The notes under the pieces are model-generated. The model saw only the letters and a list, made by a program, of their open reading frames with translations. It made no database searches and was not told the origin of the DNA. This document shows positions 9,637-11,627 of a DNA stretch of 64,000 bases, in pieces. The position numbers and the translations under genes are program-made. The DNA is from Octopus vulgaris (lineage: Eukaryota): contig OX597819.1 in assembly GCA_951406725.2 (NCBI GenBank), forward strand, positions 121,892,001-121,956,000, in the 5' to 3' direction. Each line of letters starts with the position of its first letter. Position 1 is the first letter of the stretch.

Positions 9637-9821
9637 CTGAAATATAAAACATAAAGGGGATCAGCCATCTGAATGTGGCTAGGGACAGGGCGGGGTGGTG
9701 GGGGTGTTACTGATGCATTTAGCCCCAGGCGAACATCAACATCACCAGAAGGGCTGACACCATCTCGGTGTCCTTGCCAGCCTGCAAAGGGAGATCAGCC
9801 TCCCCGAAGATACGGATACTA

Positions 9822-9864
9822 CATACGGACCGGTTTCGAGGTTATTGCCTCTTGTCAACGTATG
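9822..9864 (-). ncRNA. Minimal type I hammerhead ribozyme motif, U3-A8 core variant
   Basis: CATACG-TTGACAA-GAGG caataa CCTC-GAAA-CCGG-TC-CGTATG; perfect 6-bp stem I, 4-bp stem II, GUC site. Confidence 0.75.
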
Positions 9865-11627
9865 GTAAGCACCGTTCTTCGTTGAGGGACTCCCTCTACA
9901 GGCTGGATATATAGATTTTCACAGTAACCACAGTCACTGGCGTAGAAAATCCGTTCGAAAACAATAATAAATCTCTGAGCGAGATATAAACAGTAACTGC
10001 TCTATAACATAAGGGGGATCAGCCTTTCATAAAACATTTAAATTCATTTTAAAATTTTACAGTTAAGTTTGTCTTTTAAAAATAAAATTATACAGGTAAA
10101 GTTTTAAATAAGAATTTTATTCCCCATTTGTGTTTTTGTTATTTTTCTTTAGCCCTAGGATCCGATTTCTATAATGAATGCCTGACTGAGATCACAGCAT
10201 TGTCTCTGAATGAGACGCGATTCCGTTGCAGGATCCAAATCAGCAATTTTGAATTGAGGAGACAATTCGATTACATTCAGCAAGTGTCTTCTACTATAAC
10301 CTCGGGCCGACCAAAGCTTTGCGAGTGGATTTGGTAGTCGGAAACTGAAAGAAGCCCGTCCTATATATGTATATACGTATATGTATGCGTGCATATGTTT
10401 TGTGTCTGTGTTTGTTCTCCCAGCATAGCTTGACAACCGATGCTGGTATGTTTAAGTCCCTGTAACTTAGCAGTTCGGCAAAATAGACCGATAGAATAAG
10501 TACTAGGCTTACAAAGAATAAGTCCTGGGGGCGATTTGCTCGACTAAAGGCGGTGCTCCAGCATGGCCACAGTCAAATGACTGAAACAAGTAAAAGAGAG
10601 AGTAAAAGAGTTTGAATACACTTCATTATATCGATAAAGATAATAAGTTTTGCAAGTGAAAACTCAGAATTCTATTTCCCTCTCTTCATAAACATAGAGG
10701 CGTCTCATATGTAGCCCTGTTTATCAAACACTCATTTTTTTAATAACTGATCCGAGATCACCCTTTACGCTCAATTTTGAACGCATGTTATTCTTATGTC
10801 GAATTGAGCTCTGATAACGCTGATCGGTGACAACTTCACAATGCTCAGCTACCCAGAATGCATTGGTTATCACGTGTTTACATGATGTCGTAATGATGCT
10901 GCGTATTTTTATACGGTTTTAACAACTCCTGCTCACCAACATGGTACCACTGAACATAAACAACATCATGAAGGTACCTAATCCCAGCAAACCATGGAAA
11001 CGAATGCATTAATTACAGTAAAAGGTAGACATCATCAACAAAATATGTAAATGGTGGAAGCTTTGCAGATGTAGACCGCGCCGAGGTTGTTCTTTTTTAT
11101 TACTGATTTTTTTTATAACTCCTTCATTTATCTCTGTGTCTTTTGTTTGTTCCTTCTCAAGCCATGCATGGCTCATAAGGGCCGGTTTCTTGGCGTATAG
11201 GCTCTCCCACCTGAACGGGACGCCGGTCCGTCGCAGGTGAGCTGCAAGATGCAGGAAGAAAGAGTGACAGAAAGTTGTGGCAAAAGAGTCAGCAGAAGTT
11301 TGCCATTACCTTCTGCCGGAGCCGCGTGGAGTTTAGGTGTTTTTGCTTATAAACACACACATCGCCCGGTCTGAGATTCGAACCCGCGATCCCTCTACCG
11401 CGAGTCCGCTGCTCTAACCACTAGGCCATGTGCCTCCACACACTGTTTCTTTTGGAAATCGAACACTTTTGATGAACCGAGAGCTGATGCATCACTTTTT
11501 CATTTTCGCTTACTATTGCCACCAGGAATTGGAACTTTCACTACTACGATATTTTAGAAATAACAGCTAGACAAGGATATGATAGAATGGAATAAAAGAA
11601 AAAACAGAACAAAAAGACGGCACTTAC

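Follow-up and report, generated by a model that had tools for sequence, protein, structure and literature searches.

The window analysed here, a stretch of 64,000 nucleotides of Octopus vulgaris DNA, contains three tandem paralogous genes on the minus strand, at 9514-17631 (gene A), 34028-40068 and 50562-56814. Each encodes a small protein whose N-terminus is hydrophobic and which has two domains of CBM14 type; in gene A CBM_14 is matched by both exon 1 and exon 2. The following parts of gene A were defined.

17350..17631, minus strand: first coding exon, encoding the hydrophobic N-terminus and a CBM_14 domain; the lower edge is approximate
11628..11808, minus strand: exon 2, encoding a CBM_14 domain
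9637..11627, minus strand: last intron, 1991 nt, GT..AG, derived from a contig joint
9514..9636, minus strand: terminal exon, with AATAAA at 9540; its extent is the reach of an RNA-type contig

Four runs were compared for the splicing of this intron, all in the form of contigs, in which the RNA or DNA type is a guess of the tool and in which RNA ends, circles and efficiencies are invisible. Position 11628 is joined to 9636 with GT..AG ends in both RNA-type runs, which stem from two studies, and this joint is absent from the contigs of both DNA-type runs. The joint places the acceptor at 9638-9637 and hence the predicted cut site of the ribozyme described below (9828/9827) 191 nt above it, close to the distance of about 190 nt given by the initial annotation. 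Exon 3 completes a split TAA stop codon and carries an AATAAA, in line with the stop codon and polyA signal proposed for the terminal exon. The DNA-type run with the organism label of the RNA-type runs bridges both junctions of the inserted element, and the 5′ junction is bridged in both DNA-type runs, which bear two organism labels. Unique intron sequence beside the element has little or no cover in the RNA-type runs and was not used as evidence. Likeness to the terminal exon of gene A revealed no counterpart in genes B and C, so that hammerhead relics elsewhere in the window cannot be placed in introns of these two genes.

Within the last intron of gene A lies an insertion with the following features.

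9648..10024, minus strand: retrozyme insertion of 1.06 units, comprising unit positions 1-358 and then 1-19 (up to 22) again
9667..10024, minus strand: 358-nt unit, predicted to be highly self-paired (MFE −131 kcal/mol, z −6.04; −126 for the circle)
10006..10024, minus strand: first 19-mer, unit 1-19, the 5′-truncated stub of a partial tandem
9648..9666, minus strand: second 19-mer, the fixed 3′ end of the family (about 19-22) and putative RT start site A
9822..9864, minus strand: type I hammerhead with a U3-A8 core and a palindromic ACCGGU helix III, predicted to be cut between 9828 and 9827
9953..10008, minus strand: predicted hairpin, unit 17-72, with a pair probability of about 0.45, with the 3′ ends at about 22 and 63 on either side of it
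9660..9664, minus strand: branch-point-like CUGAU inside the element end, the putative branch A being 9661, 24 nt above the acceptor
10029..10037, minus strand: upstream copy of a candidate target-site duplication (TSD), ATGTTTTAT, 9 nt, with 4 further bases before the element
9644..9652, minus strand: downstream copy of the candidate TSD, overlapping the element end and the pyrimidine tract

The inserted copy measures 380 nt and matches a concatemer of its own unit at 99.5%; other full copies reach 96-98%. Its 5′ end is truncated and its 3′ end is the tailless end of the family. The two 19-mers lie 358 nt apart exactly as first described, and they extend to a 22-nt pair at 91%. Since the copy consists of one unit and a stub of 19-22 nt, the 19-mer is internal family sequence. 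Of the two explanations initially offered for it, terminal redundancy therefore stands, in the form of the overlap of a partial tandem, whereas the TSD is rejected. The U3-A8 type I hammerhead reported on the pre-mRNA strand is also present: a stem I of 6 bp, the core UUGACAA and a stem II of 4 bp are followed by GAAA-CCGG-UC. When the window was block-shuffled 20 times, one of the shuffles yielded a hit with stems as good (stem I at least 5, stem II at least 4). Rfam missed the ribozyme at the gathering threshold (the scan of the window returned a single tRNA), so that a descriptor script was used for hammerheads.

A 9-nt duplication as at the borders of the insertion was reached in none of 1054 overlapping control windows nearby, the largest being 8. 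The candidate, which 4 extra bases separate from the element, is shorter than the 12-14 nt typical of the family. No empty allele was found, as the DNA-type runs bridge the 5′ junction and a search for paralogous introns returned the locus itself and 9 weak AT-rich matches; the 9-nt TSD thus stays a candidate. The family was found once in the window. Consequently genes B and C carry no copy, in line with the initial annotation.

Hammerhead-bearing relics of PLE type are common in the window. A sense relic of a PLE-type minimal hammerhead with one mismatch in stem I lies in intron 1 of gene A (about 13325-13375, minus strand), and a two-armed copy of its family is located at 20617-20845. Another family is represented by a hammerhead with a canonical C3-G8 core and GAAACCGGUA at 23735-23792 (minus strand), which is single in the window.

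The genome assembly (2.8 Gb in 227 contigs) was searched for relatives. The unit gave at least 120 matches when the best 40 of 1897 candidates were scored, with full units at 96-98%. Exact ribozyme cores were found at 127 places and exact junction 28-mers at 245, with none of either in reversed controls; 99 of the 100 exact cores listed (of 127) have U3-A8. Copies occur head to tail and circularly permuted. Thus the genome-wide search suggested at the outset found the tandem and permuted copies it was meant for, the unit is not single-copy, and its description as a unit of non-LTR-retrozyme type with relatives is borne out. Units are 358-360 nt long with slightly over 50% GC. Among the first 100 of the 127 cores, 12 of 72 clusters contain a tandem pair and the largest cluster holds 4; one locus (L152) has five full units head to tail without an ORF. 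Older subfamilies extend down to 79% identity. High summed depth at the unit ends had raised the idea of a much larger truncated family, which was rejected: a variant pattern gave 43 matches, and the loci behind the depth are the older subfamilies (79-97% identity). A sister family with a length of about 347 nt can be aligned over the full unit; its core is C3-G8, and its palindrome reads ACUAGU instead of ACCGGU. Copies of this sister family (L206:1203-1690, L220 and L200; best 40 of 2886 candidates scored) have the same two ends.

The retrozyme unit has neither protein-coding sequence nor LTR. An ORF scan of 90 loci, tblastn and a comparison of 45 flanks yielded no ORF in register with the unit and no shared upstream flank. 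The copy is not an autonomous PLE, as no ORF with RT and GIY-YIG is in register with the unit, and by its testable features the family is a non-LTR retrozyme, whose RNA would be cleaved and circularised. In a search of mainly openly readable literature, neither this family nor retrozyme/Neptune hybrids were found to be described.

RNA structure is kept in the family. Positions 3 and 8 are U-A in 106, U-G in 10, C-G in 6 and C-A in 1 of 123 units, and are pairable in 122 of them. A consensus fold of 19 units shows changes on both sides in 14 of 92 predicted pairs, and the hammerhead pairs of these units are paired in 94.7% of cases, compared to 25-57% in slid controls. Covariation within the family is not established, as 163 of 500 letter shuffles of the 19 units reach the observed pairing of the hammerhead.

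Insertion anatomy was studied in 61 loci, each standing for one insertion and drawn from the 100 junction places that come first among the 245. One locus, L094, has the same insertion as L097 with identical flanks, inverted and 61 kb apart (C1:67409.5k and C1:67470.9k); this pair is a segmental duplication or an assembly artefact. Ends were tallied in 58 of the 61 loci, leaving out the duplicate L097 and the atypical L101 and L121. Of 98 arms, 54 end at unit 20-25, 38 at 60-77 and 6 elsewhere. The fixed 3′ ends are thus about 41 nt apart; the 5′ starts are scattered and show no pile-up at the cut site in the 58 insertions. With the duplicate dropped, 35 of 60 loci are head-to-head and 25 are single-armed or other. 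The head-to-head loci have one end of each kind in 31 cases, an odd end in 4 and two ends alike in none. Duplications of 12-14 nt, a length which may include 1-2 bases common with the element, flank 10 of 10 one-of-each insertions outside (TA)n, and (TA)n is among the targets of the family. With their 5′ truncation, two 3′ ends, head-to-head arms, 12-14-nt duplications and (TA)n targets, the insertions look like those of PLEs. PLE insertions show partial tandems, an inverted truncated copy and a 30-40-bp tail that is often at one end only (PMC8557442), and in vitro two RT start sites bound the tail and both strands are nicked and extended (PMC11167929). The pattern of a non-autonomous element mobilised by a PLE, namely a partial tandem, an inverted 5′-truncated arm and a tail at one end, is present in the octopus family.

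We consider it well supported that the intron of gene A carries a single 1.06-unit copy of a non-LTR retrozyme, which was likely inserted by a Neptune-type PLE and is likely inert. According to this model, loci with at least two units would be transcribed, and two hammerheads would pair through the palindromic helix III and excise a 358-nt unit, which is likely ligated to a circle. A dimer of the PLE protein would set nicks about 12 nt apart in the two strands of AT-rich DNA, and cDNA would be started at one fixed site on either side of the hairpin (unit about 22 and 63). Copying round the template for a random length could then produce partial tandems and head-to-head arms. At the window locus one arm would have run for 377-380 nt from site 22, and consequently 19-22 nt are present twice.

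The form of the template was addressed by sequence divergence in 95 loci, of which 16 classed as older were summed apart. Units differ by 1.40% within one arm (84 pairs) and by 1.48% across arms (102 pairs), compared to 3.89% between insertions. In some insertions (L019, L153) rare variants are common to all units and both arms. These data and the cluster sizes fit copying round one unit-length circle, without proving it. Alternatively, the template could be an uncut linear multimer, or the RT could jump between linear units, and the hammerhead would be dispensable for mobility. This scenario keeps the element and the enzyme and differs from the preferred one in the template step only. It draws on in vitro work in which PLE insertion was unaffected by hammerhead mutants and mainly used unprocessed RNA (PMC11167929), and on a slightly lower pooled same-register divergence in the retrozyme loci; in addition, single loci such as L130 have variants common to same-register units, a pattern expected from a linear multimer or gene conversion. 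The register test itself is flat (1.41% vs 1.78%, Wilcoxon p 0.98, 33 loci). If copying were purely linear, arrays should become shorter with each round, yet no long master array was found in the 72 clusters into which the first 100 of the 127 exact cores fall. The rare variants that run through the units and arms of L019 and L153 also speak against it, as does the lack of piling of retrozyme 5′ ends at the cut site. We regard a linear template as rather unlikely, and copying of a circle as the better explanation.

As candidate partners, at least two PLE families of young age occur in the genome, one with 784-aa frames and one with intact 811-aa frames. Both have a C-terminal GIY-YIG and a CX4CxxC linker, a combination which marks Neptune/Nematis elements (PMC8557442), and both carry a U3-A8-type core ending GAAACCGGUA. 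In both a second upstream ORF overlaps the RT-EN frame (L186, L240-L246); that of the 784-aa family has 446 aa between stops and no Pfam match. The window holds a broken Neptune-type PLE (about 2050-3960, minus strand) with about 73% protein identity to the 784-aa family over a segment of the RT. At 5975-6150 there is also a relic of a terminal repeat from the 784-aa family. No link of the degenerate PLE to the retrozyme unit was found, and the 784-aa family itself was rejected as partner, sharing the type of ribozyme core but no likeness to the unit (40 loci). Likewise the retrozyme tail shows no likeness to the 784-aa family in 40 loci and, by eye, none to the 811-aa family. In the 811-aa family the ends are 42 nt apart, and all four two-armed insertions examined have one end of each kind. 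Counted downstream from the cut site, the putative starts are at 183 and 224 nt in the retrozyme as opposed to 150 and 192 nt in the 811-aa PLE. A survey of the 5′ flanks of 45 mostly single-armed retrozyme loci revealed one hybrid of Neptune type (L088/L234).

L234:1110-4765 (C9, 11.45 Mb): two-armed hybrid insertion with a 5′-truncated Neptune-type PLE arm and a 20-nt junction duplication

In this hybrid a retrozyme arm with end 22 is joined directly to a truncated arm of the 811-aa PLE that ends at its tailed end. A retrozyme/Neptune insertion that follows the same end rule points to the mobiliser; being the single case that involves an autonomous element, it gives a lead rather than proof. 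The hybrid could alternatively have arisen by co-insertion in shared targets, although its junction has no microsatellite. In two further hybrids (L094, L102) the end-22 arm is joined to the tailed end of a third family other than the two Neptune-type families. A copy of this third family lies in the window at 43089-43290 (plus strand), about 120 nt from a tRNA gene at 42899-42969 (minus strand, Rfam 53 bits), an adjacency that may be due to chance.

The unit could also be a solo pLTR, the terminal repeat of a still undiscovered autonomous PLE. Its PLE-type ends would suit such an origin, as would its PLE-like U3-A8/ACCGGU hammerhead, which it has in common with two autonomous families of the genome, and the genome searches scored the best candidates only. 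However, units are arranged in tandem without an ORF, up to the five full units of L152, and past end 63 the retrozyme enters the next unit, whereas the Neptune family enters ORF1. As the ORF scan, tblastn and flank comparison brought up neither a frame in register nor a shared flank, a solo repeat is quite improbable, and a non-coding retrozyme moved by a PLE remains the preferred reading.

For the question of activity, the monomer was folded together with surrounding intron sequence. The prediction has stems I and II formed and the 2-bp palindromic helix III unformed (p about 0). In the same predicted fold the cleavage triplet is engaged by core bases 169-171 (p about 0.84), which would block the core. 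Furthermore, the window locus holds one hammerhead, while two units are described as a mark of active retrozymes (Li, Clavereau, Pollet, bioRxiv 10.64898/2026.07.22.740005). With a single hammerhead the locus cannot cut twice and cannot release a unit or a circle, so that the circle of about 358 nt once suggested for this locus is not expected from it. The lone copy is likely inert in place, judged from the predicted fold. A single minimal hammerhead of a PLE showed no cleavage in vitro (PMC4209133). By contrast, the retrozymes of coral and mussel cleave as monomer constructs, and monomers from the axolotl do so to 6-22% (PMC7229834); a lone hammerhead is thus not always silent.

The initial annotation had cleavage compete with splicing of the terminal exon. 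An extended form of this idea is that the host uses the intronic hammerhead, with cleavage aided by a protein or by RNA in trans, and in this way tunes the output of gene A. Indeed the hammerhead is sense to gene A, lies 191 nt above the acceptor and has its stems and core intact, DNA-type runs with two organism labels bridge the 5′ junction, and a PLE hammerhead was protein-assisted in vitro (PMC11167929). Contigs of the family in the RNA-type runs bear variants of other copies, and such RNA could pair in trans. On the other hand, dispersed members of the family match the copy at 96-98%, so that an intact core needs no host selection, the monomer hammerhead is predicted to be blocked, spliced contigs span the intron in two studies, and the same 64 kb contains relics of hammerheads from at least five further families. 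Host-co-opted hammerheads are single-copy motifs conserved by host selection with a stable monomer fold. The copy in gene A, by comparison, belongs to a young multicopy repeat, and its helix III is predicted to be unformed. Host use is accordingly very improbable to us, and a switch between cleavage and splicing is not supported. The gene A locus is an ordinary one, in which a repeat is a passenger of an intron that is still spliced. In Xenopus, 42-44% of retrozyme copies are intronic (bioRxiv 10.64898/2026.07.22.740005).

Although tandem and inverted arrangements are also known from satellite, Helitron-like and foldback elements, a DNA-level repeat with the 19-mer as a plain TSD round an inert fragment is largely refuted and extremely improbable, as the 19-mer is internal family sequence at 245 places, ends, duplications and hybrids match the PLE pattern, and the RNA structure is kept across subfamilies (the 14 pairs of 92 changed on both sides).

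The retrozyme insertion may have affected the intron in one respect. Branch points follow a consensus and lie 18-40 nt above the acceptor. CUGAU within the element end is the sole branch-like motif in this range, and no AG lies between it and the acceptor. The 3′ end of the retrozyme copy may therefore supply the branch point of the last intron of gene A, as far as the sequence motif indicates. A more detailed version of the preferred reading, in which the insertions of the family record the movement of animal retrozymes, a dimer of a Neptune-type PLE primes, from two fixed sites, both nicked strands on the hairpin of a circular retrozyme RNA, the retrozyme/Neptune hybrids directly identify the partner acting in trans, and the insertion displaced the native branch region and provides the branch point by its own 3′ end, is offered tentatively, its chances being somewhat below even.

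The octopus family resembles the non-LTR retrozymes of other animals (PMC7229834; mussel about 350-390 bp) in its type I hammerhead and its non-coding, self-paired unit of 358 nt. It also shares with them dimers and short multimers, the lack of LTRs, duplications of more than 4 bp and the presence of autonomous PLEs in the genome (PMC7229834). It differs from the retrozymes described there by its U3-A8 core and its GC content slightly above 50%. Its copies are mostly dispersed, 5′-truncated and head-to-head rather than in long arrays, and its circle is a matter of inference. Fixed paired ends and PLE hybrids, both present in the octopus family, are not described in the available part of PMC7229834.

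Partial tandems, an inverted 5′-truncated arm and a one-sided tail of about 40 nt are shared with insertions of Neptune/Nematis PLEs, as are AT-rich or (TA)n targets and two RT start sites in a stem-loop (PMC8557442, PMC11167929). Unlike these elements the octopus unit has no ORF, and apart from the ribozyme core it is not clearly similar to the terminal repeats of the two Neptune-type families compared. U3-A8 covariation and a palindromic helix III suited to dimers are likewise found in minimal PLE hammerheads such as that of Schistosoma Cercyon (PMC4209133), but the octopus stems are of canonical length (6 and 4 bp) and a long helix II is absent. Chlamys/MRC1 is another non-autonomous PLE derivative with head-to-tail insertions (PMC8557442). 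As solo copies, the retrozyme monomers of vertebrates, which are regarded as non-transposing offspring (bioRxiv 10.64898/2026.07.22.740005), are similar to the copy in gene A.

The enzyme that moves animal retrozymes and their circular template have been argued from co-occurrence and homology (PMC7229834; bioRxiv 10.64898/2026.07.22.740005). The vertebrate work links retrozymes and PLEs by co-occurrence and pLTR homology (bioRxiv 10.64898/2026.07.22.740005), whereas the link in the octopus consists of insertion anatomy and a hybrid. With a young retrozyme, mapped starts, a candidate partner with intact ORFs and a hybrid, this system is testable in the in vitro PLE assay (PMC11167929). The insertion anatomy of the family is thus of more use than the gene A locus itself: the paired-end rule and the hybrid provide a test of the mobilising enzyme.
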